32,000 bases of DNA from Candidatus Methylomirabilis limnetica (GTDB lineage Bacteria > Methylomirabilota > Methylomirabilia > Methylomirabilales > Methylomirabilaceae), in contig NZ_NVQC01000007.1 in NCBI RefSeq assembly GCF_003044035.1, forward strand, positions 25,454-57,453, written 5' to 3'. A program made the position numbers and the translations under genes. Below the pieces are notes generated by a model that was not told where the DNA came from, did no database searches, and saw nothing but the letters and a program-made list of their open reading frames with translations. Of this stretch, positions 5,341 to 18,773 are shown in pieces (the stretch's first letter is position 1; every line of letters begins with the position of its first letter).

Positions 5341-5420
5341 TCCCACGCTCAGCTCCTTTGCTCCATGCCCCATCTGTACGTATGTTCGCACCCCGCACCC
5401 CCTCCCTGCCTCTCCTCCCT

Positions 5421-5478
5421 TGTAGGGGCAGGCCTTGTGCCTGCCCAGAGCGGGCGACCACCAGGGTCGCCCCTACGT
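5421..5478. repeat. REP-like multi-hairpin element in the gspF-gspG spacer
   Basis: Stems GGGCAGGC/GCCTGCCC and GGGCGACC/GGTCGCCC, enclosed by GTAGGGG...CCCCTAC. This generates the artefactual ORF 5284..5532. Confidence 0.7.
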
Positions 5479-5512
5479 CGGCGAGGGTGGGGACGTACCC
5501 CGCAAACTGTAC

Positions 5513-6739
5513 TTAGAGCGGAAGCTCATTGATACTAAATATCGCCAGCAACATCGACATCACGATGAATCCAACAATGAGGCCTAGGGACAGGATCAGG
5601 ACCGGCTCCAGCAGCGAGGTCAAGCGCTTGACCGTTCGCCGCACCCGGTCATCGTAGGTGTCGGCCACCTTGATCAGCATCTCCTCCAGCTTTCCAGTCT
5701 CTTCTCCCACCCTGGCCATATGGATGGAAAAGGAGGGAAAGGCACCAGTGGCCCGCAGCGGGCCGCTGATTCCCTCGCCACGCTTCACCCCCTCTTGCAA
5801 CCTGGACATGGCGCCGGCGATCACCCGATTGGTGACCGTCTCTTTGACGATAGAAACGGCGGCGAGCACCGGGACCCCGCTTTGGAGAAGCGTCCCGAAC
5901 GTCCTGGCAAAGCGGGAGACCTCGATCTCCTGAATCAGGCCTCCCAGTAACGGCAAGGCCAGCTTCCACTGGTCCCACTGCATCTTCCCCTGCTCAGTCT
6001 GTAGATAGGCTCGAAGACCACCCCAGCCAATGACGATCAGCCCCACAAACACCCACCAGTAGCCGGTCGTGAACGTGCTGATCGCGAGCAGCATCCTGGT
6101 CGGCAGTGGCATGAGCTGCTTGGTATCGGCAAAGATCTGGGCAAACCGTGGAATCACGAAGTTCATCATGACCACCACGGCACCGCCACCCACAAGGAGC
6201 AGCAGAATCGGATAGATGAGGGCTGAGGTGATCTCGTCCCGGATCGTCTTGGACCGCTCCATAAACCCGGCCAGCCGCGAAAGGATCACCTCTAACACGC
6301 CGCTCGCCTCCCCCGCCTTAACCATATTGACGTACAGCCGGGAGAAAAGTCGTGGATGCTTAGCCAAGCTGTCGGCGAATGAACTACCCGCCTGGATGTC
6401 GGCCAGGACGCCACGGAGAATAGACCGGAACCGTTGATTGTCGGTCAGGTCCAGCAGGATCGACAGGCTCCGGTCCAGCTCCATCCCAGCCTCAAGCAAT
6501 GTGGCAAGTTGTTGCGTGAAGGCCAGGACGTCTTGGGCGGACGGTCCCCTCGCAAATCGGCTCTGGACCCCAGCGAGACCAGGCTTGGCCTCCACCATCG
6601 CACCGGCCTGACCAATCTTGATCGGGTAGTAGCCGTTGGTCTGGAGCCAAACCACGACCGCCCGTTCGTCGGAAGCCTCCATGCTCCCCTGGATGATCTT
6701 GGCGGCACGATCAGTGGCGGTGTATTGAAATGTCCCCAT
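5513..6739 (-). CDS. gspF: Type II secretion inner-membrane platform protein GspF
   Basis: 408 aa with two T2SSF-type repeats and three TM segments. The N-terminus MGTFQYTATDRAAKIIQGSMEA is typical of GspF/PilC. Confidence 0.9.
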   Translation of the reverse strand: MGTFQYTATDRAAKIIQGSMEASDERAVVVWLQTNGYYPIKIGQAGAMVEAKPGLAGVQSRFARGPSAQDVLAFTQQLATLLEAGMELDRSLSILLDLTDNQRFRSILRGVLADIQAGSSFADSLAKHPRLFSRLYVNMVKAGEASGVLEVILSRLAGFMERSKTIRDEITSALIYPILLLLVGGGAVVVMMNFVIPRFAQIFADTKQLMPLPTRMLLAISTFTTGYWWVFVGLIVIGWGGLRAYLQTEQGKMQWDQWKLALPLLGGLIQEIEVSRFARTFGTLLQSGVPVLAAVSIVKETVTNRVIAGAMSRLQEGVKRGEGISGPLRATGAFPSFSIHMARVGEETGKLEEMLIKVADTYDDRVRRTVKRLTSLLEPVLILSLGLIVGFIVMSMLLAIFSINELPL

Positions 6740-6774
6740 ACGCAGGCTTGACTGTAACTACTTAGACGTTTAGG

Positions 6775-7127
6775 CTGAAGGCTGAAGACTATACATTATC
6801 TCGCACGGCACAATGAACTACCCCGCAGCAAGCTACGGGGTATCGTCTTCTGTTCTGGCCCGTCATTCCGTGCTTGACACGGAATCCAGTCGGGCCCTCT
6901 GGATACCGGCTTCCGCCGGTATGACGAACTCGCGGCAAGCCGCGGGGAATGAACCCCCAGTAGATTCAAGAACTTCCCGGCTTCTACGACCTTTGGTTCT
7001 CTCAGAGAGGACTCCTCATTGGGCAAGAAGCCCACACGCTTCGACGCATTGCGACTTCAACAGCCAACTCAACTGCCAGAGGTTGTGTGTGATCATCGCT
7101 TTAACCCTAAAAGCCTTCAGCCTTCAG
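6775..7127. repeat. Inverted-repeat-bounded ~350 bp non-coding block containing stacked REP hairpins
   Basis: 13-bp inverted repeat CTGAAGGCTGAAG 6775-6787 / CTTCAGCCTTCAG 7115-7127 (tandem heptads). Interior hairpins include ATTCCGTG/CACGGAAT, ATACCGGC/GCCGGTAT and CCCCG/CGGGG. Track ORFs 6796..7035 and 6813..7235 are artefacts of it. Confidence 0.6.
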
Positions 7128-7265
7128 TCTATCTACCTAATGAGTTACATTTTACCTTTATTGACACCGAATTACAGGTATAGGTTTACGACTATAGCAA
7201 CTACCGATGCACTGTCAATAGAAATCAGGTCCTGAAATGGCCCTGCAAGTCGCTTGAACTGGCCT

Positions 7266-7302
7266 CAAAAATCAAGCAGATAGGAGACCCTATCTGCTTG
7301 AT
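7266..7302 (-). terminator. Rho-independent terminator downstream of gspE
   Basis: Perfect 14-bp stem ATCAAGCAGATAGG 7271-7284 / CCTATCTGCTTGAT 7289-7302 with a 4-nt loop. On the minus strand it is followed by TTTTT (7266-7270). It lies 42 nt after the gspE stop. Confidence 0.75.
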
Positions 7303-7343
7303 TGATAAAGGGTTGCCGGCTCACATGGGGAAGCAGTCGGAGC

Positions 7344-9077
7344 TTACGCCTCCTCTTTGGTGACCCGAAGCAGATCCTCCAGGGTCGTAACCCCCAACTC
7401 AACGTTCCGCCAGCCATCCTCCCAGAGCGTCTTCATGCCAAACTGGAGCGCCTTCTGCCGAATCGTGTTAGAGTCGGCCTTTTCCAGGATCAACCGTTGA
7501 ATCTCTTCGCTGATTACCAAAAACTCGTAGATGCCGCTGCGACCACGGTATCCGGTAAAGTTACACGCGGCGCATCCCTTACCCCGAAATACCTGCATCG
7601 ATCCATCGACCTCGGTCTTGATCCCCATTTTTCGGACCGCAGCCGAATCCAACCGGTACGACTCCCGGCACTCATGGCAGATAACGCGGACCAAGCGCTG
7701 AGCCAGGACCGCCACCAGGACGCTCGAAACCAGGTAGTTTTCGATACCCATGTCCAGAAGCCTCGTGATGGCGCCGGGCGCGTCATTCGTATGCAGGGTG
7801 CTGAACACCAGATGCCCGGTCAGCGCCGAATGGATGGCGATGTCTGCGGTCTCCGCATCGCGGATCTCCCCAACCATGATGATGTCTGGATCCTGGCGGA
7901 CGATAGAGCGCAGGCCGTTCGCGAAGGTCAGACCGATCTTGGGCTTGACGTGGATCTGGTTGACTCCTTGGAGCTGATACTCAACCGGGTCCTCGATGGT
8001 GATGATCTTTTTGTCGGCGGAGTTGATCTCACTCAGCGCCGTGTACAAGGTGGTCGTCTTCCCGCTCCCGGTCGGCCCCGTCACCAGGATCATGCCATGC
8101 GGCTTTCTAATCAGCCGCTGGAATTGTAAGCGAATATCTTCAGGCATGCCCATATCCCCGAGGCTCAGGAGGAGGCTACTGCGATCCAGGATTCGCATCA
8201 CGACGCTTTCGCCGTGCAAGGTGGGAATCGTGGAGACCCGGAGGTCCAGGTCCTTCCCCAGGATCTGGAGCCTGATCCGACCGTCCTGTGGAAGCCGTCG
8301 CTCGGCGATGTTCATCTTGGCCATGATCTTGACACGGGAGATCACGGCCCTCTGGAGCCGCTTGGGAGGGGACTCGTGGTCCACCAGCACGCCATCCACC
8401 CGGTAGCGGATTCGAAGCGTATCCTCGAACGGTTCGATGTGGATATCGCTGGCGCGGGCCTCCACCGCCCTGGTGATCACGAGATTCACAAGCTGGATAA
8501 CAGGGGCCTCGGAGGCCAGATCCCGCAGATGATCGATATCCTCACGATCATCGCCTGACGCCCCACCCTCCTCCTCGCTATACCCCTTGACGATCTTCTC
8601 GATCGTCGCCTGGCCATCGCCATAATACTGATCGATCGCATCGAGGATCTCCCGATCCTGGGCTAAACAGACTATGATAGCGAGGCCGGTGCTAAGTCGA
8701 AGGTCGTCTAGCGTATACGGATCAGCCAGGTCGCCCATGGCGACGGTCAACGCGCCATCTTTGATCTCAATCGGGAAGACCTTGTGCTCCCGCAGGTACT
8801 TCGAGGAGGGACGATTACGAATCAGAACAGGTGTAATCGAGAGGGCTGCGAGCGATAGATAGGGAACTGCAAATTGCAGGGCAAGAGCTTTTGCGACGTC
8901 TTCTTCTGACACATACCCAAGCTCTACAAGGGTTTCCCCAAGCCGTTTACCGACCTCCCGCTGGTGAGCTAACCCTCGTTGGAGTTGGTCCCGAGCAACC
9001 AAGCCCTCACGGATCAGGATTTCGCCAAGCGGTTCGCGCACCCCACTCCACTGCCCACTGCCCATAGTGCGATCCAT
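7344..9077 (-). CDS. gspE: Type II secretion ATPase GspE
   Basis: 577 aa. N-terminal MshEN/GspE_N-like domain, Walker A GPTGSGKTTTLY, Asp and His boxes, and the tetracysteine motif CHEC...CAAC. Confidence 0.92.
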   Translation of the reverse strand: MDRTMGSGQWSGVREPLGEILIREGLVARDQLQRGLAHQREVGKRLGETLVELGYVSEEDVAKALALQFAVPYLSLAALSITPVLIRNRPSSKYLREHKVFPIEIKDGALTVAMGDLADPYTLDDLRLSTGLAIIVCLAQDREILDAIDQYYGDGQATIEKIVKGYSEEEGGASGDDREDIDHLRDLASEAPVIQLVNLVITRAVEARASDIHIEPFEDTLRIRYRVDGVLVDHESPPKRLQRAVISRVKIMAKMNIAERRLPQDGRIRLQILGKDLDLRVSTIPTLHGESVVMRILDRSSLLLSLGDMGMPEDIRLQFQRLIRKPHGMILVTGPTGSGKTTTLYTALSEINSADKKIITIEDPVEYQLQGVNQIHVKPKIGLTFANGLRSIVRQDPDIIMVGEIRDAETADIAIHSALTGHLVFSTLHTNDAPGAITRLLDMGIENYLVSSVLVAVLAQRLVRVICHECRESYRLDSAAVRKMGIKTEVDGSMQVFRGKGCAACNFTGYRGRSGIYEFLVISEEIQRLILEKADSNTIRQKALQFGMKTLWEDGWRNVELGVTTLEDLLRVTKEEA

Positions 9078-9227: not shown

Positions 9228-9257
9228 TTAACAATTTGGGGATTCACCCGTTATAAT
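9228..9257 (+). promoter_or_regulatory. Candidate sigma70 promoter facing the RiPP-like operon
   Basis: Plus strand: TTAACA (9228-9233), 18-nt spacer, TATAAT (9252-9257). It is divergent from the gspE promoter and ~270 nt upstream of precursor A. Confidence 0.35.
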
Positions 9258-9525
9258 GACCCCCACAGGGGATTCCCCGAGGGCGCCCCACTCCTATTTA
9301 CAACGTAGCCTGTTCCTGAGTTCCGATGATGCGAGGGGCGGCAATAACAATGAGCGATCCTTCCTCAGCGGGCATCCGGTGCTTTTCTGGATTCCCCGGT
9401 CAAGCCGGGAAATAACAAGTATAGTAAACGGTGTCGTCATTATTCTAAGGCCGTTAAGAACTTCCTGAAGATTATCGCGTGGACTCAGTCAATGCAGTGA
9501 GGAACCTTTGACAGGAGGGTGAAAA

Positions 9526-9666
9526 ATGGGGGAATCGGGAAAGACAGCAGAGCTTATCGATCGTGAGGCGAAGGAGTCCAAAGCCGCCTACGAGCGGCCT
9601 ATCCTCAGACGGGTGGGGTGGCTTCGGGATGTGACCGCTCAGGCGAGCATAGATACTATTGAGTGA
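9526..9666 (+). CDS. RiPP precursor peptide A (46 aa), lasso-type leader, predicted core QASIDTIE
   Basis: Not in the ORF track. GGAGGG lies 6 nt upstream of the ATG. MGESGKTAELIDREAKESKAAYERPILRRVGWLRDVTA|QASIDTIE matches Y-x2-P-x-L-x3-G-x5-T-x. Confidence 0.75.
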   Translation: MGESGKTAELIDREAKESKAAYERPILRRVGWLRDVTAQASIDTIE

Positions 9667-9691
9667 GGAACCTTTGACGGGAGGGTAAAAA

Positions 9692-9826
9692 ATGGGGGAA
9701 TCGGGAAAGACAGCAGAGCTTATCGATCGTGAGGCGAAGGAGTCCAAAGCCCCCTACCAGCGTCCCACCCTCAGGCGAGTGGGGTGGCTTCGGGATGTGA
9801 CCGCTAACGGAAGCACTGATACTTAG
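9692..9826 (+). CDS. RiPP precursor peptide B (44 aa), predicted core NGSTDT
   Basis: Tandem paralogue of A, offset 166 nt, same RBS. MGESGKTAELIDREAKESKAPYQRPTLRRVGWLRDVTA|NGSTDT. The first 20 codons are identical to A. Confidence 0.75.
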   Translation: MGESGKTAELIDREAKESKAPYQRPTLRRVGWLRDVTANGSTDT

Positions 9827-9898
9827 ATACTTTTTGGATTTGCCCCATGCCCCTTCACTAGACAGCCTGGTATTCTGGCGCCTGAGAGGTAAAGCGGC

Positions 9899-11272
9899 AT
9901 GGACGTAGTAGGGGCTGCGCTGAGCAGGCGCCTGCGTTCGTTCTTTCGATCGCGGCGAAAGCTGCAGAAACTACAAGACTCCTTCCACAATCTGGGATGG
10001 TACGCCCTCACTGCCTGGTCACGCTGGAAGCTTAAGGGATTCCAGGGGCCGGTGATTGCTATTACCGGCACCAAAGGGAAGACTACGACCACCCGCCTGA
10101 TCTCCAGGATTTATTCGGATGCCGGTTATCGGGTCGGGATGGCCTGTAGCGGGGGGGTCTACGTCAATGGCATCTGCGTCCTAAGTGGGTCATTCTCGGG
10201 TGTGGACGGTCCCCTCCGGGCCTATCGGGCCGGAGGGCGCGATCTTCTCGTGCTGGAAACCGCCCATGGCTCGATCCAGCGGTATGGATTCGGCTTCCCT
10301 GACTGTAACGTCGCGATCTTCACCAATATTACCGATGGCCACCTGGGTGAGCTAGGCATCGAAACCCTGGAGGAGATGCTGGCCCTGAAATGGAGGTTGG
10401 CTTCCAGGGTCCGTTCAGGGGGGACTATCATTCTAAACGCTGATGATCCTCTTCTGTCCTCCCTTCGCCCTCCTCGATGTGTCGAAGCGGTCCACCTGAG
10501 CCTTGCCAGATCTCCTGCGCATGGCGGCGCTGATCTCGGTGCGCCTCTGTATCGATACGATTATCATGGAGCGGTGGTAAAGGAGTGTGGCGGATGCCCT
10601 TCCATCGTTGCCGAAATCTCTGATGCACCTTTGCTTTGTAAGGGCTTTGCTCCGTATAACGCCTACAACCTGCTGGCGGCCATTGCCTCCGTAGAGGCCA
10701 TGCGTCCATTCCTGCCAGTTTCACAGGAGTCGCTTCTCAAGAGTCTCATGTCTTTCGGGTCGGTCCCGGATGATAACCCTGGGCATTTCAATCTGTTCGA
10801 GGGTGCATGGGGAAGGGTGCTCCTTTTGGCGGGGAGCAACAGGGACAGTTACCAGAGGGATGCCCAGGCTCTTGCCAGAATACGGGTCTGCCCCCCTTTT
10901 CCTGTGGGACGCATCATCGGGGTTATCACGGGCATAGGGATGCAATCAACGAGTTACATCCGTGAACTTGCCGGGATCGCCGCTTCCGTGTGTGATGAGA
11001 TCATCATCCGGGAACCCCTGCCGCGTTACAGGCATGTGAGGGCCCCGGGAGAGATCTCATCTATCCTGAAGTCAGCGGCGTTGGAGTCTGGCATCCCTTA
11101 TCACGCCATTCATGTTTGGAGCGAGACATCTGACCTGATCAGGGATCTCGTTCTCCCCAACAGGGAGGCAAACCGTTTCGTTGCTGTCTTTTCTGCATTT
11201 GCCCAGGAGCCGATCATTGATCTCTGCCGGCGCTTGGGTGACCTGGGTTCCAGCTCTAACCGGTGGTCGTGA
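9899..11272 (+). CDS. Stand-alone Mur ligase family protein, cyanophycin synthetase M-domain-like
   Basis: 457 aa. P-loop ITGTKGKTTTTRLI, then GGVYVNG...LVLETAHGSIQRYGFGF..CNVAIFTNITDGHLG...IILNADDPLL parallels the CphA Mur-ligase-like domain. There is no ATP-grasp domain. Confidence 0.75.
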   Translation: MDVVGAALSRRLRSFFRSRRKLQKLQDSFHNLGWYALTAWSRWKLKGFQGPVIAITGTKGKTTTTRLISRIYSDAGYRVGMACSGGVYVNGICVLSGSFSGVDGPLRAYRAGGRDLLVLETAHGSIQRYGFGFPDCNVAIFTNITDGHLGELGIETLEEMLALKWRLASRVRSGGTIILNADDPLLSSLRPPRCVEAVHLSLARSPAHGGADLGAPLYRYDYHGAVVKECGGCPSIVAEISDAPLLCKGFAPYNAYNLLAAIASVEAMRPFLPVSQESLLKSLMSFGSVPDDNPGHFNLFEGAWGRVLLLAGSNRDSYQRDAQALARIRVCPPFPVGRIIGVITGIGMQSTSYIRELAGIAASVCDEIIIREPLPRYRHVRAPGEISSILKSAALESGIPYHAIHVWSETSDLIRDLVLPNREANRFVAVFSAFAQEPIIDLCRRLGDLGSSSNRWS

Positions 11273-11480
11273 GTGCTTCCCAGCCTGTCGGTCATCATGA
11301 CAGGTTAGTGGCGGTCGTTAATGACCAGAGCTGATAACCAGGGTCAACCTCCAATACTCTCAATACACTGGAAGTCGCCATGTGCGGGTAGTGGCGAATC
11401 TCCTTGACCGGTTAGGGCATGGTCTGATATGAGGTTGGAGTTGACCAAGTCTCAACCGTCGTCACACGTATGAGGCATCG

Positions 11481-11801
11481 ATGGAATTGAGAGATCTTAC
11501 TCGTATTTGCCCGATGAAAGGTGAACATGTCACATGGAAGGCCCTCGAAGGGGAGAGCGTACTCCTCCATCTCGAGACCGGTGTCTATTTCACCTTGAAT
11601 GAAACGGGCACCACGGCATGGGAGCTGTTCGATGGGGCGACCTCTTTGGCTGCGATAGGTGAGGCCCTGTACGCGCGATTCGATGTCCTGCCAGAACAGG
11701 TTGGGCAGGATCTCCTCGATCTGACGCAGACACTCCTAAAGGAAGGATTGGTGAGGGTTTGTGAAGACCCTTCGACGCCTTCGGGAACTGAGCGATCCTG
11801 A
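11481..11801 (+). CDS. PqqD family RiPP recognition element (lasso B1-like)
   Basis: 106 aa. VLLHLETGVYFTLNETGTTAWELFDGATSLAAIGEALYARFDV is a typical PqqD/RRE fold signature. GAGG lies 5 nt upstream of the ATG. Confidence 0.85.
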   Translation: MELRDLTRICPMKGEHVTWKALEGESVLLHLETGVYFTLNETGTTAWELFDGATSLAAIGEALYARFDVLPEQVGQDLLDLTQTLLKEGLVRVCEDPSTPSGTERS

Positions 11802-12264
11802 GGCGCTTTGGCTCTTCGTCTGGTCGCTTCTCACCATCTTCGAGGCAGCCGTCCTTGTGCGGACCTTGCCATTGCCCACGCTCCTCAGCCACTTTAGCCG
11901 TCAGTCTTCAAGGCGTTCCGAGCGGAAGGCGCTCGTCAAACCGGAGATTCGCTCACTCGACCGGGTCCGGCGGTATAGCAATATGATCATCACACGTCTC
12001 CTCCGTTCTCGGCGCCCATGCCTACTCCGCTCCCTAGTCGTGTACCGATACGGTTGCAAGCACGGTATCCCAGTCTCGATCCACTTTGGTGTGAGGTCCG
12101 GTATGGATAGATTGGAAGGACATAGCTGGGTGACGCTTGACGGCGCCCCCCTGGGTGAGTCGGAAGAAGGGTTGCGTCCGTATGTGGCCGTCTATTCGTA
12201 CCCGACAGGTACCGACGGGGCCGACCCCCAACACGCTCTGGCAGCGGTTGGCTGGCGGCCATGA
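11761..12264 (+). CDS. Transglutaminase-like cysteine protease (lasso B2-like leader peptidase)
   Basis: 167 aa, GTG start overlapping B1 by 41 nt. Motifs RRPCLLRSLVVYRY (Cys), GVRSG...GHSWVTLDG (His/Asp) match lasso B2 proteins. Confidence 0.85.
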   Translation: MKTLRRLRELSDPEALWLFVWSLLTIFEAAVLVRTLPLPTLLSHFSRQSSRRSERKALVKPEIRSLDRVRRYSNMIITRLLRSRRPCLLRSLVVYRYGCKHGIPVSIHFGVRSGMDRLEGHSWVTLDGAPLGESEEGLRPYVAVYSYPTGTDGADPQHALAAVGWRP

Positions 12265-13361
12265 TCGGACAGCTCGTCGAAACAGGGTGCCGCGCCACAC
12301 CCGGTCTTGGTCGCTGGTACCTGGACCATTATGTCAGTATCAAGCGATTCGAGAAGCAGGTCCGACGCCGACTAGGATTTCCCGCACCCCCCTCATCGGT
12401 AGATCTCCTGCTGACCTATGGCTGTAACTTCACCTGCGATCACTGCGAATCCTCGTCCCATCCCAAGGCCGAGTGGGGGCTTTCCTTCGAGACGATCGCC
12501 CGGCTGATTCGTGAGATGGGGGAGATGGGGGTGAAGTATCTTAACATTACGGGCGGCGAGCCACTCGTTCGACACGATGTCTTCGACATCATTGATCTCG
12601 CCACTCAACAGGGATTGCGGGTGCATCTGGCCACCAACGGAAGCCTGGTCGAGCAGAACCGCGAACGGCTGGCCCGGCTCAAGCTGGCCAGCGTCTTTAC
12701 CAGCGTGGACGGCTTGGAGGAGACGAACGATCGCTTCCGACACCACCCCGGGGCCTTCAAGAAAACCTTCCGGGCCCTTGAGTTGTTTCAGGAGATGGGG
12801 ATCTCCCCTCGCATGGTCAATACGATGGCCCATCCCGGAAACCTCCATGAGATGGAGGAGCTGGGGGATTGGATTATGGCCTCGGCTGCGACCTGCTGGC
12901 GGATCGCGCTGGCCCTGCCCTCGGGGCGGGCAAAGGGCAAGGATCGTTTCCATCTGACCGACGATCAGATCCGGTGGATTCTTGATTTTATCCGAGAGCG
13001 ACGGGAACGATTTCCGGTGATGCTAAGCGAAGAGGTGGGGTATCTGGGACCGTGGGATCTGGAGGTCAGGTCGAAGCCATTCACCCCCTCGGAAGGGCTG
13101 AGCGTCTGTGCCATCATGCCAACAGGGGATGTCATCGGGGCAACCGTCCTTCATGATGCGGCCTATTCCGAAGGGAACATCAAGGATCAGGGCCTCAGGG
13201 AGATTTGGAATAACGGCTTCCAGCGCTATCGGGAGCCGGTCCTTCCAGAGGAGTGTTACGCCTGCCGCCACCTCCCTGCCTGCGGCGGCGGCAAGTTAGT
13301 GATGCGCGTAGGTAATCGTCACTGCAACAAACAACTCTGGGAAGGAGGAGGAAACGCATGA
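12261..13361 (+). CDS. Radical SAM enzyme with C-terminal SPASM/twitch-like Cys cluster
   Basis: 366 aa. CNFTCDHC (Cx3Cx2C), GGEPL, and C-terminal C..G...CYACRHLPAC...HC. ATGA overlap with B2. Its stop overlaps the ATG of precursor C (ATGA). Confidence 0.88.
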   Translation: MIGQLVETGCRATPGLGRWYLDHYVSIKRFEKQVRRRLGFPAPPSSVDLLLTYGCNFTCDHCESSSHPKAEWGLSFETIARLIREMGEMGVKYLNITGGEPLVRHDVFDIIDLATQQGLRVHLATNGSLVEQNRERLARLKLASVFTSVDGLEETNDRFRHHPGAFKKTFRALELFQEMGISPRMVNTMAHPGNLHEMEELGDWIMASAATCWRIALALPSGRAKGKDRFHLTDDQIRWILDFIRERRERFPVMLSEEVGYLGPWDLEVRSKPFTPSEGLSVCAIMPTGDVIGATVLHDAAYSEGNIKDQGLREIWNNGFQRYREPVLPEECYACRHLPACGGGKLVMRVGNRHCNKQLWEGGGNA

Positions 13362-13486
13362 AGGAAGTCCAGGAACAGAACGTCCATGAGACCGATCAGA
13401 AGACGCCCTACACGAAGCCGACCCTCACGAAGCACAAGCCGCTGCGGGATATTACGGCGGGGGACATCTCGGGTGCCCGTGGATAA
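13358..13486 (+). CDS. RiPP precursor peptide C (42 aa), predicted core GDISGARG
   Basis: Not in the ORF track. GGAGGAGG RBS. MKEVQEQNVHETDQKTPYTKPTLTKHKPLRDITA|GDISGARG has the same spacing as A/B, with K in place of the motif G. Confidence 0.75.
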   Translation: MKEVQEQNVHETDQKTPYTKPTLTKHKPLRDITAGDISGARG

Positions 13487-13570
13487 GGGTGCGAAGTAGA
13501 CTGATGCTTACCGATGCGGCATAGCCCTCGATATCGTAAACCTTAAAGATAAAGTCCAAGGAGCGAGCCA

Positions 13571-13675
13571 ATGAAGGATGTTACGCCAACTCCAAAGCAG
13601 CCGTACACGAAGCCGACGCTGACGAAGCACAAGCCACTGCGAGATATCACGGCAGCAAATCCCTCGATTACATAA
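13571..13675 (+). CDS. RiPP precursor peptide D (34 aa), predicted core ANPSIT
   Basis: Not in the ORF track. AAGGAG lies 7 nt upstream. MKDVTPTPKQPYTKPTLTKHKPLRDITA|ANPSIT. Confidence 0.75.
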   Translation: MKDVTPTPKQPYTKPTLTKHKPLRDITAANPSIT

Positions 13676-13766
13676 GTCTTTATCGGTTGGGAATATGCGT
13701 GGATGTGACGATGCTTGACTGTGAGGTTGCTTGAGGGGGCCGTGCCGAGCGTACCACTCACCCTAA

Positions 13767-13790
13767 CCCTCTCCCACAGCGGGGAGAGGG
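13767..13790. repeat. GC-rich stem-loop (REP-like) downstream of the precursor genes
   Basis: Perfect 9-bp stem CCCTCTCCC 13767-13775 / GGGAGAGGG 13782-13790. There is no T-run, so it is not a canonical terminator. It may act as a transcript stabiliser or attenuator between the precursors and the tailoring genes. Confidence 0.45.
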
Positions 13791-13864
13791 GATCTAAAAG
13801 TTGGGTCGAGACAATACGTCACCGTAATTCTGGCCAGAAGGAGTAAGGAGCGGGATTCTTATGT

Positions 13865-14971
13865 ATGGGGCACATGGGAGCAGCGGGGATCGATTGCGTC
13901 GCGTCACCAGCCGCCAGGATGAAGGCGACACGTGTACGCTGTAATGGCACTATGAGCGGTCTCCTGACGCAGCATTTTAATATCCACGGCATCGGCGTTC
14001 GGGTGGATACTGATATTCCGTTGTTGGCCACCGCGATTGGTGAGCTGCTGCACCGGTTTGCCTATCCTCCCGTGACGGATAGTCAGCCGCTGCGATTCAT
14101 CTATGGACGTAGCGGGAAGGCCCTGGACCCACTTTCAAATGGATCATCCGATGGAGGCGGGCCATTGCTCTTCTCGACATCCTGGGAAAATGCCTTCGAT
14201 CTTGCTGGGCGGCTGGGAGTCAACTGGGACGTCTATGGTCGGGATGGTTGCCTATTGCTGGATTATCATCGACGTGGCCGGCTACGGCTTGACGTCTCGG
14301 CAGGGGTACTCGAGGGATCGCTCACTGAGCCGTTGGATCTCCACCCTGCACTGCTCCCCAGCATCTTCTTCTTTTTTCCGCTCGCGCAGCTTCTGGCACG
14401 GCGGGGACTCCATATAATTCATGCAGCCGCGCTGGAACGGAACGGGTGCGGGGTGCTGATCCCCGGCTTGAGCGGGAGCGGCAAGAGTACCAGTTGTGTG
14501 GCACTCATGCGTGGAGGGTATCGCTGCCTCTCTGATGACAAACCGTTTCTCCGAGGGACCGAGAACGGCCTTGAGCTGCTCGCCTTCCCAGAGATGATCG
14601 ATGTGACCGATCAGACCATTGCCTTCTTTCCGGAGCTTCGTGAGAGAACGGCCGCGATCGCGGTGGGTTATCGAAAGAAGCGGTTCTGCGCCGAGATGCT
14701 CTATCCGGGATCAACGGTCGATGCCGCCACACCTCGCGTGATTCTGTTTCCACAGATCAGTAAAGAGTCGACAAGTAGAGTCGAGCCGCTTTCAAAGATC
14801 AGGGCACTTCAGGCGCTCCTGCCTCATAGTCTCCTCTGTTTTGATCGCGAGGTTTCGGTACGTCACTTCGAGCTGCTCTCACGCCTCGTCGAAACAACTG
14901 CCTGCTATCGCCTGCATTTTGGCCGTGACGTCATGGACCTGCCCCGCCTGATCGATCCGCTCCTGGGATGA
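13865..14971 (+). CDS. HPr kinase-related (HprK-like) serine/threonine peptide kinase
   Basis: 368 aa. HIIHAAALERNGCGVLIPGLSGSGKSTSCVALMRGGYRCLSDD matches the HprK C-terminal P-loop region. The start is uncertain (ATG 13865, 13919 or 13952). Confidence 0.75.
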   Translation: MGHMGAAGIDCVASPAARMKATRVRCNGTMSGLLTQHFNIHGIGVRVDTDIPLLATAIGELLHRFAYPPVTDSQPLRFIYGRSGKALDPLSNGSSDGGGPLLFSTSWENAFDLAGRLGVNWDVYGRDGCLLLDYHRRGRLRLDVSAGVLEGSLTEPLDLHPALLPSIFFFFPLAQLLARRGLHIIHAAALERNGCGVLIPGLSGSGKSTSCVALMRGGYRCLSDDKPFLRGTENGLELLAFPEMIDVTDQTIAFFPELRERTAAIAVGYRKKRFCAEMLYPGSTVDAATPRVILFPQISKESTSRVEPLSKIRALQALLPHSLLCFDREVSVRHFELLSRLVETTACYRLHFGRDVMDLPRLIDPLLG

Positions 14972-16095
14972 CGGGGATGAAAAGTTCCCCAGAGGGGCAC
15001 GCCCTCCTTAGGATACTCCGGGCCTCGCTGTCTGAGGCCTCTTCAGATCCGGCAATCGTCCTCTCCGCTCTCGACTGGTCCCTGCTCCAGCGATTGGTCC
15101 GCCACCACCGGGTCGGACCGCTCCTCTCATACAGCCTGCGCCGGTCCCGGATTCGTGGGATCCCAGACTGGCTACGATCGGAATGGGAGGCGCAACGCCG
15201 TGAGACGGTCGCCACCGCCCTGTACCACGTGCAGGCCCTAGGGGAGCTGGCGGGACTGTTCGAGGCTCGTGACATCCCATTCATCCTCCTGAAGGGCGAG
15301 GCCCTCTCGAAAACATGCTATCCGGATGAAGGGCTGCGGCCCTACAGCGACATCGATCTCCTCATCAAAGAGGGCTCCTACGAGACGGCAAAGGCTGCGC
15401 TGACAGAGTGTGGGTTTGGCCTAAGGTACCCGCACCTCGAGACCGAGAAGCGCGAGTTGTTTGGGGAGGTTGAGTTCGATCGGCAAGGTCCAAGAACGCT
15501 GACGGTGGATCTCCACTGGGATACCCTCATGGCCTCCTGGGGGCCACCATCCCTTTTGAGCGGTACAGAAGCATGGAGCGTCGCTGAGCAGATCCAGATC
15601 GGGGGGCGACTCGTACCAATACTCGGAGGCGAGACTCTACTGCTCCACCTCTGTGTCCACTTTACATTCCACCACGCCTTTGACGGCCTAATTCTCCTGT
15701 GTGATCTTTTCCTGGTCCTCAGGCGGGAAGGTGGCCGGATCGACTGGGGTCGTCTCTTGCGGAAGGCTGATCGCTATCGGTGCCGCTACGCGGTCTACTA
15801 TGCCCTGACTTGCGTACAGTCGCTCCTGGGGGCCCACATCCCGTCCCCGATCCTAAAGAGACTGAGACCGGCGATTCCGGTTAGGCTCCTCATGCCGGTT
15901 ACTCAGTTGCTCCTACGGGATCGTCCGGTCCCTCAGTTGCTGGAACGCTATGTCAAGTTCCTCCTGATCGACGATCAGGCGGGCCGCTGGCGGGCTGCTC
16001 AGAGCTGGTGGGGGTCAAGCAAGCCGTGGCTGATCAAACGGAACCGCGCCTCGCGCCGTTCAGCTACTGTTGACATTACCGCACCCGGCGCATAG
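14968..16095 (+). CDS. Nucleotidyltransferase family protein (NTP_transf_5 type)
   Basis: 375 aa. IPFILLKGEALSKTCYPDEGLRPYSDIDLLIKEGSYETAKAALTECGF is the signature of the uncharacterised nucleotidyltransferase family seen next to HprK-like kinases. 4-nt overlap with the kinase gene. Confidence 0.75.
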   Translation: MTGMKSSPEGHALLRILRASLSEASSDPAIVLSALDWSLLQRLVRHHRVGPLLSYSLRRSRIRGIPDWLRSEWEAQRRETVATALYHVQALGELAGLFEARDIPFILLKGEALSKTCYPDEGLRPYSDIDLLIKEGSYETAKAALTECGFGLRYPHLETEKRELFGEVEFDRQGPRTLTVDLHWDTLMASWGPPSLLSGTEAWSVAEQIQIGGRLVPILGGETLLLHLCVHFTFHHAFDGLILLCDLFLVLRREGGRIDWGRLLRKADRYRCRYAVYYALTCVQSLLGAHIPSPILKRLRPAIPVRLLMPVTQLLLRDRPVPQLLERYVKFLLIDDQAGRWRAAQSWWGSSKPWLIKRNRASRRSATVDITAPGA

Positions 16096-16211
16096 GTTTA
16101 ACCCGACTTTTGCAGTTAACCTCATGCGTGAGCCTCTCTCGCAGTTCCTGACCTGCCGAGTCCCGTGGTTGACATCCTCTTTTACACGGATCGGGGCTCA
16201 TGCATCCCTCA

Positions 16212-17081
16212 TCAAGCGGGCGTCGACCTTTCCGTGCCTGCCGCCGTTGAAGGGGAGATAAAGAACGCTACGACATCCTCGCCCCCATCCACCCCGATCA
16301 CGTTACCTGTCATCCAGTAGGTCTCGGGGCGGCTCAAGGTGACGAGGATTTCGGCAATGTCCTCGGGCGTGGTGAGGCGGCCGGAGGGATTGAGCCGCAT
16401 CGCAGTTTCTACGATCTCCTGGCTTCCTGGGATCTTCCGGAGCGCTGGAGTATCGGTGACCCCTGCGCGGATAGCGTTCGCCGTAATCCCCATGGGGGCC
16501 AGCTCCATCGCGAGCTGCCGGATATGCGACTCCAGAGCCGCCTTGGCCGCCGAGACGGCCCCATAGCCGGCCCAGACCCGCCTCCCGCCAGAACTGGTCA
16601 TCGCGTACACCCGTCCACCGCGGACCATCAACTTTCGCGTCACCAGCTCCTGAACCCAATAGATGAGGCTGTGGGCCATCACACCCAGGGTCATATCCAT
16701 CTGGACCGAGGTGATGGCGTCCTTGGGCGAAAGGGCAACGAACGGCTTCAGGGTCCCGAAGGCGAGGGAGTGCAGCATCACATTCACCGCAGAGGACTCC
16801 CCTCGATCGGCCAGGATCTTCTCCATCTGATCCAGGACATCGCACCGCTTCTCTGAATCGGAGGCGTTCACGTTGAAAAAGACCGCTTCCCGCCCCGCGT
16901 GTTTGATCTCGCTGATGATCCGCTCGACATTCGGCATGGTTGCCTTGCGGTCCAGGTGTACGCCAAATATATGCATCCCTGCTTTCGCCAGAGCAAGGGA
17001 GGCGGCCCCACCGAAGCCGCTGGAGGCCCCAAGGATCAGGGCCCACCCCTGCAGTCCCGAACTCTGCGATTGCGTTGTCAT
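16212..17081 (-). CDS. SDR family oxidoreductase, enoyl-ACP reductase (FabL/FabI)-like
   Basis: 289 aa. GASSGFG nucleotide-binding motif and YGAVSAAKAALESHIRQLAMELAPMGITANAIRAG active-site region. Confidence 0.75.
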   Translation of the reverse strand: MTTQSQSSGLQGWALILGASSGFGGAASLALAKAGMHIFGVHLDRKATMPNVERIISEIKHAGREAVFFNVNASDSEKRCDVLDQMEKILADRGESSAVNVMLHSLAFGTLKPFVALSPKDAITSVQMDMTLGVMAHSLIYWVQELVTRKLMVRGGRVYAMTSSGGRRVWAGYGAVSAAKAALESHIRQLAMELAPMGITANAIRAGVTDTPALRKIPGSQEIVETAMRLNPSGRLTTPEDIAEILVTLSRPETYWMTGNVIGVDGGEDVVAFFISPSTAAGTERSTPA

Positions 17082-17595
17082 GCACTCCTCCGCGTCTGTT
17101 TTCTTTATATCTCAGGAATGACGGTTTCCGGAGATCTGTCGAACGGTACTGTCGTTTGACGCCGAGCTTCTATAAATATAGCGCAGCATCTCATCAGCAG
17201 ATGGAGCTTAGACTTCTTTTTGTCCTCTGTCAACCATGAATCAGACGTCTCTCCGCACTCAGAAGGTACCCCATGGGGGGAATGAAGGTGAGGGAGTACC
17301 AAGCATTGGACCTAACGCCTCCCCACCAAACTTGCACGCCCATGGACGCACCACTGGCGCATCGAGTATTACGAGAGAGCAACGCGGCTGAAGCAAACTC
17401 TTAGTTATGGCGGTGCGTGACTGGAGACATGAGGAAGGATCTAGATTCTCAAGAGCTTAGCAGAGAGTCCGATATCGTCCATGGTGTGCTTTCTGTCAAA
17501 GACTGGATGATACCCCGCTCGAATCCGATACGGCGACTGCCTCTAAGTCGTTACCTCCGCATGTAAGGGGTACCCACACTAAACTCGCAACACCC

Positions 17596-18075
17596 CTAAT
17601 CCTCAGCCTTTATAGCCGCGCTGGGCTCACGTTGGTCAGGATGTGGTGAGGGCTCATGTCGATTTGTAGATAGCAGGCCTAGCTGGTACATCAGCCCAAG
17701 GAAGTCGTGCTGTGCCCATCGCTCTATGATCTTCCCTCCCTCGAAACGGTAGATGACAATACCGGTCATCTCTAACCGCTTTCCAGTTGGCGGGACACCA
17801 AAGAGTTCGCCTGTATGCATTCCAGCCGCTGTCATTCGGACCACCACCCGGTCTCCCTCGGCAATCAGATCGTGAATAACGGGGTTGCCCTCTGGGGCCG
17901 CGGACGCAAAAGCTCTGAACGTCTGCTTGATCGCTTCAAGTCCGGGCTTGAGACCGGGGATCGGCGGTGGATCGTGGTAGACAAGATCGGGGGAGAAGAA
18001 CTCATCCATTGCCGAGAATTTGAACCCCTCGTCGTAGAGGCGACGCACTAGACGCTTGTTGTCTTCCGTCGACAT
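17596..18075 (-). CDS. SnoaL-like ester cyclase family protein
   Basis: 159 aa. NKRLVRRLYDEGF...DLVYHD...GLEAIKQTFRAF...VVVRMTAAGMHTGELFGVPPTGKRLEMTGIVIYRFEGGKIIERW is typical of predicted ester cyclases. Confidence 0.7.
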   Translation of the reverse strand: MSTEDNKRLVRRLYDEGFKFSAMDEFFSPDLVYHDPPPIPGLKPGLEAIKQTFRAFASAAPEGNPVIHDLIAEGDRVVVRMTAAGMHTGELFGVPPTGKRLEMTGIVIYRFEGGKIIERWAQHDFLGLMYQLGLLSTNRHEPSPHPDQREPSAAIKAED

Positions 18076-18204
18076 CTGACACCTCCTACATTGCTGTTGT
18101 ATGCGCGGGGCTAAGCGCCGCGCCTATCTGGGGCCTAACCAGTTATTGCGGATTGCTTTTCAGTCAAACAGAAAGTTTTTAGTGAGTCAAGGGATAAATT
18201 GAGA

Positions 18205-18363
18205 GTAACCATTCAGTTACGGGTGGAAAAATCTCCCCTAGCCCCTCTTTTCCAAAGAGGGGGACTACCCGTTTCCCCCTTTGAAGAAGGGGGATTAAGG
18301 GGGATTTTATAAAAACCTACCACATTTTATTTAATGATTTCCCCCCTATCACTGAATGGTTAC
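18205..18363. mobile_element. MITE copy 1 (159 bp, 13-bp perfect TIRs, 8-bp TSD AATTGAGA)
   Basis: TIR GTAACCATTCAGT 18205-18217 / ACTGAATGGTTAC 18351-18363. Direct repeats AATTGAGA lie at 18197-18204 and 18364-18371. The interior is nearly identical to the reverse complement of 31695-31862. Confidence 0.85.
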
Positions 18364-18464
18364 AATTGAGAAGGGCGATACGTTGACAACCTGCATGCGG
18401 AAAGTTATGATGGTGATCTTCTAATCGAACGAAACGTGAACCGTTTCCTGCACTGGAGGGAGCA

Positions 18465-18773
18465 ATGATTGTCGTAACTAACAGAGTGCCTGTCACAAAG
18501 GGGTATGAAAAGGAGTTCGAGAAGCGATTCGACCACCGCTTAAGCGTTGTAGAGCGTAAGCCGGGATTCATCCGAAACGAGATTCTACGGCCTATCCTGG
18601 GCGATTATTACATCCTCCTGACCCATTGGGAGAGCCGGGAGACGTTCGAGGCCTGGACCCAGAGTGAAGAGTTCAAGCAGGTCCACAGCAACCTGGCGCC
18701 TAAGGAGATGTGCCCCGGTCCCAACGGCTTCGAGATGCACGAGGTCATCCTGGTGTCAGAGAAGAAGCCATAG
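18465..18773 (+). CDS. Antibiotic biosynthesis monooxygenase (ABM) domain protein
   Basis: 102 aa. MIVVTNRVPVTKGYEKEFEKRF...GFIRNEILRP...YYILLTHWESRETFEAWTQSEEFKQVH is an IsdG/ABM-like ferredoxin-fold signature. Confidence 0.75.
   Translation: MIVVTNRVPVTKGYEKEFEKRFDHRLSVVERKPGFIRNEILRPILGDYYILLTHWESRETFEAWTQSEEFKQVHSNLAPKEMCPGPNGFEMHEVILVSEKKP

Follow-up and report, generated by a model that had tools for sequence, protein, structure and literature searches.

A 32-kb stretch of the genome of the methane-oxidising bacterium Candidatus Methylomirabilis limnetica (hereafter the window) carries four small ORFs that resemble lasso peptide precursors, together with lasso-type processing enzymes, a kinase, a nucleotidyltransferase, a radical SAM/SPASM enzyme and a stand-alone Mur-family ligase. 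A first-pass annotation had reported these genes and the absence of a lasso cyclase, and this observation held in full: all four small ORFs, the shared leader motif and the six enzyme domain assignments were recovered. The features are listed in the table below.

Features of the cyclase-less lasso-type locus in the window, with the sequence evidence for each.
Coordinates	Strand	Feature	Evidence
9526-9666	+	Type-A precursor 1 (ORF1); leader ending in AAYERPILRRVGWLRDVTA, core QASIDTIE	GGAGG Shine-Dalgarno; 100% identical to family member P0215, named Candidatus Methylomirabilis limnetica; first copy of a 166-bp tandem duplication with ORF2
9692-9826	+	Type-A precursor 2 (ORF2); same leader, core NGSTDT	GGAGG Shine-Dalgarno; weak hit to NCBIfam lasso_leader_L3 (E 0.017, below cut-off)
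9899-11272	+	Stand-alone Mur-family ligase resembling the cyanophycin synthetase M domain (457 aa)	Pfam Mur_ligase_M, 73 bits; best NCBIfam match cyanophycin synthetase positions 480-847, 211 bits (cut-off 850); PDB sequence match to 7lg5 residues 489-855, E 2e-34; dN/dS 0.13-0.20
11481-11801	+	PqqD-family RiPP recognition element (RRE; lasso B1 type)	Pfam PqqD, 65.9 bits; best NCBIfam match lasso_PqqD, 43.8 bits (cut-off 80); dN/dS 0.16 against locus L017
11761-12264	+	Lasso B2-type transglutaminase-fold Cys protease (leader peptidase)	Pfam Transglut_core3, 58.8 bits; NCBIfam lasso_biosyn_B2, 56.3 bits (cut-off 33); RPCLLRSL ... EGHSWVTLD, read as the Cys-His-Asp triad of B2 proteases; homologues named 'lasso peptide biosynthesis B2 protein' in M. 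oxyfera
12261-13361	+	Radical SAM/SPASM enzyme, accessory, linked to type-B precursors	Pfam Radical_SAM plus SPASM; best NCBIfam match MftC, 148.7 bits (cut-off 265); dN/dS 0.11
13358-13486	+	Type-B precursor 1 (ORF3); leader ending in PYTKPTLTKHKPLRDITA, core GDISGARG	Shine-Dalgarno GGAGGAGG; ATG overlaps the radical SAM stop codon (ATGA); identical to family member P0222; core Ser4
13571-13675	+	Type-B precursor 2 (ORF4); same leader, core ANPSIT	AGGAG Shine-Dalgarno; leader differs from ORF3 mainly by synonymous changes
13865-14971	+	HprK-related (ScmC-like) P-loop kinase; true start probably about 30 codons downstream of 13865	NCBIfam HprK_rel_A, 77.9 bits (below cut-off); Pfam Hpr_kinase_C, 25 bits; PDB HPr kinase, E 7e-4; Walker A motif GLSGSGKS; orthologues carry PF27840 ScmC and align from residue 26-38
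14968-16095	+	NTP_transf_5 nucleotidyltransferase	Pfam, 186.8 bits; orthologues in loci L003, L008, L012, L016 and L017; dN/dS 0.18
18893-22353	-	Two ABC exporter genes (ABC_membrane + ABC_tran); possible exporters, membership doubtful	Pfam; syntenic in L016-L018, absent from the TatD-adjacent loci and the M. oxyfera locus

The four small ORFs share the leader motif Y-x2-P-x-L-x3-(G/K)-x-LRD-(V/I)-T-A, which is of lasso type with Thr at position -2, followed by a variable core. In ORF1 and ORF2 the Shine-Dalgarno site lies 7-8 nt upstream of the ATG. To determine whether these were chance ORFs, we searched with a profile of the family and found at least 379 distinct small proteins at E<=1e-3. 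Every hit that carried a source name came from Methylomirabilis-type bacteria, apart from one contig labelled Patescibacteria. Leaders were conserved, whereas cores were hypervariable and 4-15 aa long (median 8-9), with one outlier of 21. The leader blocks of ORF3 and ORF4 differed by six synonymous codons and one non-synonymous codon, and across loci pN/pS was 0.40 for the leader and 0.98 for the first core codons.

We next looked for a lasso cyclase. No ORF of 150 aa or more in the window had a hit to Asn_synthase, and all seven ORFs of 400 aa or more were otherwise assigned, to pilus/T2SS proteins, the Mur ligase and two ABC transporters. No cyclase was found within 10 kb in any of the related loci that we read, where the only PF00733 hit was a 244-aa QueC. 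These searches covered the window and the neighbourhoods of related loci rather than whole genomes.

Comparison with related loci (numbered with the prefix L) showed that the region consists of two separable modules. Module 1 (9497-11272) comprises the two type-A precursors and the ligase. In 11 distinct loci, all 13 ligase genes of this clade had a type-A precursor within 160 bp on the same strand, although most loci were retrieved through the ligase and only one (L016) was approached in reverse, starting from a type-A precursor. Locus L005 held only two precursors and the ligase, as a stand-alone cassette bracketed by a 177-bp direct duplication. Loci with two ligase paralogues gave each its own precursors, and ligase subclades tracked leader and core subtype, as for the 92%-identical L001a and L004a ligases with the 5-aa cores VNGSV and VTASP. 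Module 2 (11481-16095) comprises the RRE, the B2 protease, the radical SAM/SPASM enzyme, the two type-B precursors, the kinase and the nucleotidyltransferase. The kinase was the most constant enzyme partner of the precursors across loci. The radical SAM gene, conversely, sat only with type-B precursors at the syntenic locus (window, L016 and L017) and was missing from the M. oxyfera type-B locus and from all TatD-adjacent loci. Its orthologues in L016 and L017 were each directly followed by a small ORF, which were type-B precursors in L017, whereas the 41-aa ORF in L016 lacked the LRD motif. In the complete genome of M. oxyfera, the locus is just an RRE, a B2 protease, a type-B precursor and the kinase, and lies next to polysaccharide genes. 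All six enzyme genes of the window had dN/dS of 0.11-0.21.

The ligase clade is sharply separated from other sequences, with at least 56% identity inside and at most 33% outside. The one nearest-outgroup ligase whose context was read sits beside CphA1, cyanophycinase and an amidohydrolase. An AlphaFold2 model of the ligase (pLDDT 80.8) gave the CphA1 M domain as its best Foldseek hits, at E 1e-28 and 26-28% identity. The P-loop GTKGKTT, E120 and H148 are invariant in the clade, and the P-loop Lys/Thr, Glu120 and His148 correspond to catalytic residues listed in PMC9427784 and PMC9262961. However, the ligase has TDGH where CphA1 has DH, so that the catalytic Asp is shifted by one residue. An enzyme of this type was not found in any ribosomal-peptide pathway in the literature searched.

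The cores themselves were patterned. Ser/Thr was nearly universal at core positions 2-4. It occurred in the first five residues in 104 of 105 type-A cores (shuffle mean 82, maximum 93), while Ser was at position 4 in 15 of 20 type-B cores (shuffle mean 4). Of the type-A cores, 89% contained Asp/Glu, and the last acidic residue lay within two residues of the C-terminus in 71 of 93. The first acidic residue was mostly at core positions 5-9, but ranged from 1 to 11.

We suggest, with moderate confidence, that the locus holds two adjacent modules of a cyclase-less offshoot of kinase-type lasso peptide clusters, and that the likely products are short linear phosphopeptides, with a ligase-made amide on the acidic core tail. 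While the genes, their domains, the precursor family, the co-location, the signatures of selection and the core patterns are established by our analysis, every chemical step is inferred from homology. By analogy with paeninodin-type lasso peptides and the linear polyphosphorylated peptides (LPPs) of Bacillota (Popov et al., Nat Commun 2026, PMC13381572), the RRE of module 2 would bind the YxxP leader, the kinase would phosphorylate the conserved Ser/Thr at core position 3-4, the nucleotidyltransferase may extend that phosphate and B2 would cut after Thr-Ala. This would release linear phosphopeptides of 4-15 residues rather than lassos, with the radical SAM enzyme as an optional extra tailoring step for type-B cores. 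HprK homologues and nucleotidyltransferases modify lasso precursors, and the LPP kinase LppK phosphorylates core Ser3. Still, LppK rejected Thr at position 3, whereas many cores here have Thr, and known paeninodin kinases act on a C-terminal rather than an internal Ser.

Enzymes resembling the module 1 ligase activate a carboxylate with ATP as an acyl phosphate and join it to an amine, and we infer that this one acts on the acidic C-terminal half of type-A cores. The reaction we favour, although only tentatively, is the addition of an amino acid or other amine to an Asp/Glu side chain or to the C-terminal carboxylate, as the M domain adds Arg to the β-carboxyl of the C-terminal Asp of cyanophycin. 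Closure of a small lactam with the N-terminal amine freed by B2 is possible but less likely, and some other reaction makes up the rest. As 12 of 105 type-A cores have no Asp/Glu, a side-chain-only mechanism cannot be general. In addition, several loci with the ligase lack B1/B2 within 10 kb, so leader removal there would need trans-acting enzymes.

The interpretation in the first-pass annotation was partly supported. It correctly recognised the lasso-type leader and B1/B2 pair, the resemblance of the kinase and nucleotidyltransferase to those of paeninodin-type clusters, the lack of a cyclase in cis and cores too short for a threaded lasso, and the ligase on which it centred its proposal is indeed co-conserved with the precursors. 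Its proposal of one pathway built around the ligase and the radical SAM enzyme was not supported, as these travel with different precursor types. Its statement that no characterised RiPP family has this gene set is out of date for half of the genes, given the LPPs. Its main idea, that the ligase takes the cyclase's place, is a possibility that we regard as doubtful. In this view, the ligase would activate Asp/Glu or the C-terminal carboxylate after B2 frees the core N-terminus, giving cyclic 5-15-mers by head-to-side-chain or head-to-tail lactam formation. The chemistry is plausible, since lasso cyclases and Mur ligases both activate a carboxylate with ATP for attack by an amine. The B1/B2 pair with a conserved Thr-Ala cleavage site, the usual position of the first acidic residue and the tracking of core type by ligase subclades are compatible with it, and cores without any acid, such as VNGSV, VTASP and ANPSIT, still offer a C-terminal carboxylate. 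Conversely, the characterised LPPs stay linear, so nothing requires a replacement cyclase, and the ligase also occurs without B1/B2 within 10 kb and in a cassette with precursors only. The variable position of the first acidic residue would leave ring size unconstrained, half of the type-A cores start with Gln, which tends to block the N-terminus as pyroglutamate, and the nearest homologues add a free amino acid rather than cyclise.

The other readings appear less likely. The ligase might be a mere neighbour that serves cyanophycin-like or cell-wall metabolism, as its closest relatives outside the clade are cyanophycin-associated and a second, different CphA-M-like ligase of 518 aa exists elsewhere in M. 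limnetica-like genomes. However, no CphA1, cyanophycinase or murein gene accompanied it in any of the 11 loci, and its proximity to type-A precursors, its movement with them as a cassette and the paralogue-specific precursors make this unlikely. Ordinary lasso peptides made with a cyclase encoded elsewhere in the genome are very unlikely despite the lasso-type leader, B1 and B2, because the cores are too short for a 7-9-membered ring plus loop and tail and only some have Asp/Glu at positions 7-9. Moreover, no Asn_synthase-type cyclase was found in the window or within 10 kb in any related locus, and antiSMASH 2 found no lasso cluster in a Methylomirabilis genome bin (PMC5383146). The PQQ or mycofactocin logic raised in the first-pass annotation, in which the radical SAM/SPASM enzyme would modify a short C-terminal core that is then cut out as a cofactor or small molecule, is equally improbable. 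While a free PqqD, a SPASM enzyme with MftC as its best NCBIfam match and short C-terminal cores recall such systems, the MftC score was far below its cut-off, as was that of PqqE (89 against 381). Cofactor precursors have invariant cores whereas these are hypervariable and multi-copy, and the radical SAM gene is absent from most loci. Finally, a decaying lasso cluster with non-functional small ORFs is a remote possibility. L016 shows a frameshifted B2 and radical SAM fragments and L014 carries a transposed fragment, but the dN/dS values, purifying selection on the leader, strong Shine-Dalgarno sites and hundreds of intact variants across many samples speak against decay.

Of the characterised systems, the LPPs are the closest. 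Both are cyclase-less relatives of kinase-type lasso clusters with a YxxP leader and highly variable C-terminal parts, LPP clusters have an RRE, an HprK-like kinase and an NTP transferase, and they lie near polysaccharide loci, as does the M. oxyfera locus. The leader peptidase here is lasso B2 rather than a SipW-like signal peptidase, the cores are much shorter than the 45-aa core in the LPP studied, and the leader ends in LRD(V/I)TA rather than FETxxS. The host belongs to the NC10 lineage, whereas LPPs are stated to be restricted to Bacillota, and the Mur ligase and radical SAM/SPASM genes have no LPP counterpart. Paeninodin/pseudomycoidin-type phosphorylated lasso peptides share the split B1/B2, the HprK-like kinase, the nucleotidyltransferase and Thr at -2. 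They differ in having an Asn-synthetase-like cyclase, in cores long enough to thread and in the C-terminal Ser that their kinases modify, whereas the conserved hydroxyl residue here is near the core N-terminus. The SynChlorMet cassette and HprK-related kinase A systems, computational families of NCBIfam/TIGRFAM that are also uncharacterised, combine a PqqD-like protein, an HprK-like protein (Pfam ScmC) and a radical SAM/SPASM enzyme, but all scores were far below the family cut-offs (ScmC 31 against 125, ScmD 29 against 100, ScmF 72 against 400), and none is known to include a Mur ligase or B2. Cyanophycin synthetase CphA1 (PDB 7LG5, 7LGJ, 7WAE) provides the best sequence and fold match to the ligase through its M domain, a Mur-type ATP-dependent ligase whose natural substrate is a peptide carboxylate and whose ATP-binding residues are conserved here. 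Unlike CphA1, the protein in the window has no N domain, no ATP-grasp G domain and no Pfam Mur_ligase_C hit, and its gene context is ribosomal precursor genes rather than cyanophycinase.

We first examined the four small ORFs described in the first-pass annotation. They are real and lie where it had placed them, and its observation as a whole is confirmed. ORF1 and ORF2 form a 166-bp tandem duplication that is 91% identical at the DNA level, with the two copies diverging mainly after the codons for ...LRDVTA. ORF3 and ORF4 share a second leader type, and their leader blocks differ by six synonymous codons and one non-synonymous codon. Each of the four ORFs has a strong Shine-Dalgarno site, and ORF3 is coupled to the stop codon of the radical SAM gene. 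Searches against Pfam and NCBIfam also confirmed the six enzyme calls of the annotation. No ORF of 150 aa or more in the 32-kb window is an Asn-synthetase homologue. An Rfam search returned nothing anywhere in the window, a plasmid search with 9400-16200 gave no match, and a scan for promoters and terminators found nothing above the shuffle expectation, although one good -35/-10 match lies upstream of ORF1. The start codon of the kinase gene is probably about 30 codons downstream of the position listed, because homologues align from residue 26-38.

Coordinates of the features in the window and in related loci (L-numbers denote contigs carrying related loci)
Source	Coordinates	Strand	Feature
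Window	341-9077	minus	Type II secretion / type IV pilus-like gene set (PilM/N, GspK, GspJ, pseudopilins, GspF, GspE)
Window	9228-9257		-35/-10 match
Window	9497-11272		Module of type-A precursors plus ligase
Window	9526-9666		ORF1, type-A precursor
Window	9692-9826		ORF2, type-A precursor
Window	9899-11272		Mur ligase
Window	11481-16095		Module holding the remaining genes
Window	11481-11801		PqqD-type RRE (B1)
Window	11761-12264		Lasso B2 protease
Window	12261-13361		Radical SAM/SPASM enzyme
Window	13358-13486		ORF3, type-B precursor
Window	13571-13675		ORF4, type-B precursor
Window	13865-14971		HprK-related kinase
Window	14968-16095		NTP_transf_5
Window	24987-27326		Low-GC island
Window	24987-25355 and 26177-26506		Duplicated ORF of about 110-120 aa
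Window	25415-26049 and 26757-27326		Two small overlapping or adjacent gene pairs
Window	27541-28113		190-aa ORF with a partial Radical_SAM match
Window	29044-29754	opposite to the cluster	236-aa Diphthami_syn_2 protein
L001	12913-13518		2OG-Fe(II) oxygenase gene
L012	2211-2816		2OG-Fe(II) oxygenase gene
L003	13632-15215		Conserved protein of about 530 aa
L003	15643-15819		Conserved 58-aa protein
L005	908-3217		Two precursors plus Mur ligase, bracketed by a direct duplication
L014 (and L015)	9873-12462 (L014)		Transposed fragment beside a 518-aa Mur ligase
L016	6267-12895		Rearranged locus syntenic with the window
L103 (M. oxyfera FP565575.1, about 767-776 kb)	9724-18481		Minimal type-B locus followed by polysaccharide-type genes

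We next determined how widespread the precursors are. ORF1 is 100% identical to a protein of Candidatus Methylomirabilis limnetica, and a profile built from 20 precursors retrieved 379 clusters of small proteins. Every one that carries a source name comes from Methylomirabilis or Methylomirabilota, apart from one contig labelled Patescibacteria. Two leader types exist. Type A reads ...PY(Q/E)RPxL(K/R)(R/K)(V/I)GxLRDVTA and includes window ORFs 1 and 2, in a GWLRDVTA subtype, whereas type B reads ...PYTKPTLTKHKPLRDITA and includes window ORFs 3 and 4. All four window precursors and the whole family fit the lasso-type leader spacing YxxPxLxxxGxxxxxTx with Thr at -2, with Lys in place of Gly in type B, although the hit to the NCBIfam profile lasso_leader_L3 is only weak (E-value 0.017-0.029). 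Conservation stops exactly after Thr-Ala, the canonical lasso cleavage site, and across loci the leader has a pN/pS of 0.40 against 0.98 for the first core codons.

The cores themselves are short and hypervariable. The 105 distinct type-A cores are 5-15 aa long (median 9), and the 20 distinct type-B cores are 4-12 aa plus one of 21 aa (median 8). Half of the type-A cores start with Gln and half of the type-B cores with Gly. Ser or Thr occurs within the first five residues of 104 type-A cores (shuffle mean 82, maximum 93), with the first Ser/Thr at position 2-4 in 94 of 105, and Ser is found at position 4 in 15 type-B cores (shuffle mean 4). Asp or Glu is present in 89% of type-A cores but in only 10 of the type-B cores, and the first acidic residue lies anywhere from position 1 to 11. 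In type A, the last acidic residue lies within two residues of the C-terminus in 71 of 93 cores. We also tested for a fixed Ser/Thr-to-Asp spacing that would suggest a Thr/Ser-Asp ester, but no single spacing stands out. Only the order is fixed, as Ser/Thr comes before the first acidic residue in 91 of 92 type-A cores.

To investigate which enzymes accompany the precursors, we compared gene neighbourhoods. The ligase belongs to a tight clade, with 56-96% identity inside the clade and 33% or less outside it. We read 11 distinct loci carrying 13 clade ligase genes (the window, L001, L003, L004, L005, L006, L008, L010, L012, L013 and L016), and in every case a type-A precursor lies within 160 bp on the same strand. 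As most loci were reached through the ligase, the presence of a precursor beside every ligase is well tested, whereas the presence of a ligase beside a type-A precursor was tested once (L016). A further metagenome scan with the ligase alignment, which used generic P-loop patterns, returned almost only unrelated Mur ligases and one new family locus, L022.

Three observations argue that the ligase works on the peptides. In L005 the only family genes are two precursors and the ligase, and this 2.1-kb unit is bracketed by a 177-bp direct duplication (93% identical) of the 3' end of a gene resembling the CCA-adding enzyme (HD and tRNA-nucleotidyltransferase domains), which suggests that the module was inserted as a discrete unit. 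The L005 contig is labelled 'Patescibacteria group', probably a binning error, because its genes are 75% identical to Methylomirabilis ones. In addition, loci with two ligase paralogues (L001 and L004) give each paralogue its own precursors. Finally, ligase subclades follow leader and core subtype in an identity matrix from which the L006 and L022 ligases were left out. The window, L005 and L016 ligases go with GWLRDVTA leaders and mostly QASxD-type cores, while the 92%-identical L001a and L004a ligases go with the acid-free 5-mers VNGSV and VTASP.

The other genes are distributed differently. The HprK-like kinase is the most constant partner and occurs in the window, L001, L003, L004, L008, L010, L012, L016, L017 and M. 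oxyfera, whereas B1/B2 and NTP_transf_5 are present in some loci and absent within 10 kb in others. The radical SAM/SPASM gene occurs only at the locus syntenic with the window (window, L016 and L017), where it is directly followed by small ORFs, which are type-B precursors in the window and L017. In the complete M. oxyfera genome, the type-B locus is just RRE, B2, precursor (core GDVSVIGGVRV) and kinase, followed directly by glycosyltransferase, ABC-2 exporter and dTDP-sugar genes. This echoes the capsule-locus association reported for LPP (linear polyphosphorylated peptide) and paeninodin clusters. L016, from another Methylomirabilis genome, has a different module order, in which the type-A precursor and ligase come after NTP_transf_5, and carries a frameshifted B2, radical SAM fragments and an extra B2 fragment, which points to ongoing rearrangement and duplication. 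All six window enzymes are under purifying selection, with dN/dS of 0.11-0.21. We therefore read the region as two juxtaposed modules, one of type-A precursors plus ligase and one holding the rest. The interpretation in the first-pass annotation, a single candidate RiPP class built around the Mur ligase and the radical SAM enzyme, is partly supported.

Additional candidate genes were found in related loci. A conserved protein of about 530 aa follows the precursors or NTP_transf_5 in all TatD-adjacent loci (L003, L004, L006, L008, L010 and L012). It carries an SGGTRSxGT motif that may resemble the AMP-binding loop of adenylate-forming enzymes. We considered it as a divergent cyclase, but it has no Pfam, NCBIfam or PDB sequence match and is absent from the window. 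A conserved, zinc-ribbon-like 58-aa protein with two Cys pairs (CxC ... CxxC) lies just downstream of this gene where it is present (L003, also L001, L004, L008, L010, L012 and L013). In some TatD-adjacent loci, a 2OG-Fe(II) oxygenase gene sits among type-A precursors and ligases and is another variable tailoring candidate. L014 and L015 carry a transposed fragment of the window-type locus that holds the last 40 codons of the radical SAM gene, an intact type-B precursor (core QQISPSVD), a partial second precursor and an SDR gene fragment, in a genome with a precursor that NCBI names M. limnetica. The fragment lies next to a different, 518-aa CphA-M-like Mur ligase. As this ligase is only 32% identical to the window ligase and its neighbour is a transposed fragment, the adjacency may be accidental and we did not count it as a link.

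Only the central domain of the window ligase hits Pfam, and its best NCBIfam match is the M-domain region of cyanophycin synthetase (profile positions 480-847), at 211 bits against a cut-off of 850. Only this M-domain region aligns and no ATP-grasp domain is present, so the protein does not have the N domain, ATP-grasp G domain and Mur-like M domain of CphA1 in one chain. Nor does it resemble the peptidoglycan ligases MurC-F and Mpl at equivalog level, as its best Mur scores are 40-66 bits against cut-offs of 212-1023, and in the predicted structure the N-terminus is only a 50-residue helical extension rather than a UDP-MurNAc-binding domain. Its best solved relatives by sequence are CphA1 M domains (7lg5 residues 489-855, E-value 2e-34), and an AlphaFold2 model (pLDDT 80.8, pTM 0.83) matches the same domains best (E-value 1e-28), then MurE. 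The P-loop (GTKGKTT), Glu120 and His148 are invariant in the clade and correspond to residues shown to be needed in CphA1 (PMC9427784; PMC9262961), whereas the Asp of the DH pair is displaced by one residue (TDGH). The one nearest-outgroup stand-alone ligase whose context was read sits next to CphA1, a cyanophycinase (Peptidase_S51) and an amidohydrolase, which suggests that the clade was recruited from cyanophycin metabolism. The CphA1 M domain adds Arg to the beta-carboxyl of the C-terminal Asp of a peptide chain (PMC9427784), which is close to what an enzyme acting on the acidic C-terminal end of type-A cores would need to do.

We then compared the region with known systems. Like lasso clusters, it encodes an RRE (PqqD, 65.9 bits) and a transglutaminase-fold B2 protease (lasso_biosyn_B2, 56.3 bits against a cut-off of 33), in which RPCLLRSL ... 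EGHSWVTLD is read as the Cys-His-Asp triad. However, no Asn-synthetase-like macrolactam synthetase was found in the window or within 10 kb in any related locus read, and the cores are too short for a 7-9-residue ring (Asp/Glu at position 7-9) plus a threaded tail. On these two points the region fails the defining tests for a lasso cluster. In lasso systems, HprK homologues phosphorylate the precursors and nucleotidyltransferases add hexose to that phosphate (PMC8498205). The closest characterised system is the LPP family (PMC13381572), whose precursors carry a YxxP leader and variable C-termini and whose kinase polyphosphorylates core Ser3. Its authors call LPPs linear analogues of phosphorylated lasso peptides, state that they are restricted to Bacillota, and note that they sit near capsule loci. 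That paper mentions neither a ligase nor a radical SAM enzyme. [quoted passage not shown] The Methylomirabilis family shares this cyclase-less kinase logic in the loci read and shows the position pattern of an N-proximal hydroxyl residue, although many of these residues are Thr, which LppK rejects. It fails one defining test for LPPs, as no SipW-like (archaeal-type signal peptidase I) or other signal-peptidase domain was found in any window ORF scanned. It differs in keeping the lasso B2 protease, in having much shorter cores, in occurring in another phylum, and in adding the ligase and, at one locus type, the radical SAM enzyme. With regard to the MsbA-like exporter of LPP clusters, two ABC exporter genes, whose membership in the system is doubtful, lie 2.8 kb away on the opposite strand and are syntenic in three related loci but absent from the other locus types. 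The PQQ and mycofactocin logic raised in the first-pass annotation is unlikely, as MftC scores 148.7 against a cut-off of 265 and PqqE 89.4 against 381, and the cores are hypervariable. Literature searches on ScmC and SynChlorMet found only unrelated uses of the acronym SCMC.

While the genes, neighbourhoods and core statistics come from the sequence analysis, no chemistry was observed, and every step of the following mechanism, including phosphorylation, is inferred. The RRE would bind the leader, the kinase would phosphorylate Ser/Thr at core position 3-4, NTP_transf_5 may extend the phosphate, and B2 would cut after Thr-Ala. The ligase would form an amide on a carboxylate of type-A cores, and the radical SAM enzyme would tailor type-B cores. 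For the ligase, we tentatively favour the addition of an amine or amino acid over lactam formation with the freed N-terminus, which we consider unlikely. Its relatives add free Arg, it occurs without B1/B2 nearby, and LPPs show that no replacement cyclase is needed. Still, 12 of 105 type-A cores have no Asp/Glu, so the C-terminal carboxylate must be usable in at least some cases. The invariant Asp of the leader (LRD) was rejected as a target because the leader is removed. Evidence against a lasso cyclase acting in trans is indirect, and consists of core length, its absence from every related locus read, and an antiSMASH survey that found no lasso cluster in a Methylomirabilis bin (PMC5383146).

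We thus interpret the system as a cyclase-less relative of kinase-type lasso clusters whose new element is a precursor-coupled Mur-family ligase. Full-text literature searches for Mur ligases in connection with lasso peptides, leader peptides or RiPPs, and for cyanophycin synthetase with precursor peptides, found no RiPP precedent. We consider it slightly more likely than not that a ligase derived from the cyanophycin synthetase M domain is a dedicated enzyme for modifying ribosomal peptides, recruited to a lasso-type leader to build an amide on hypervariable 5-15-residue cores, either as an amino-acid branch or extension or as a small lactam. If so, this would be the first Mur-type ligase known in RiPP biosynthesis and would define a new RiPP subclass, with about 380 natural core variants, in nitrite-dependent methane oxidisers. 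A leader-guided, ATP-dependent ligase that tolerates hypervariable short cores would be new enzymology and a possible tool for peptide engineering. The locus also shows that lasso relatives without a cyclase in the loci read exist in the NC10 lineage, where they use the lasso B2 protease itself, which bears on how RiPP classes diversify by swapping the class-defining enzyme while keeping the leader-recognition machinery. The hundreds of diversifying variants suggest a role in competition or signalling among these methane oxidisers. As the host is available only in enrichment culture, it matters that the four window peptides and about 6.6 kb of genes form a compact set for heterologous expression.

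Elsewhere in the window, a low-GC island (GC 0.48 at 26-27 kb) holds the duplicated ORF and two gene pairs that, by eye alone, look like toxin-antitoxin pairs. The 236-aa Diphthami_syn_2 protein belongs to the PP-loop ATPase superfamily, which includes the Asn synthetase C-terminal domain, but it lies 13 kb from the cluster, and we saw no link between it or the 190-aa ORF and the peptide genes. Directly upstream of the cluster lies the complete type II secretion / type IV pilus-like gene set, and the same arrangement is seen in L016.
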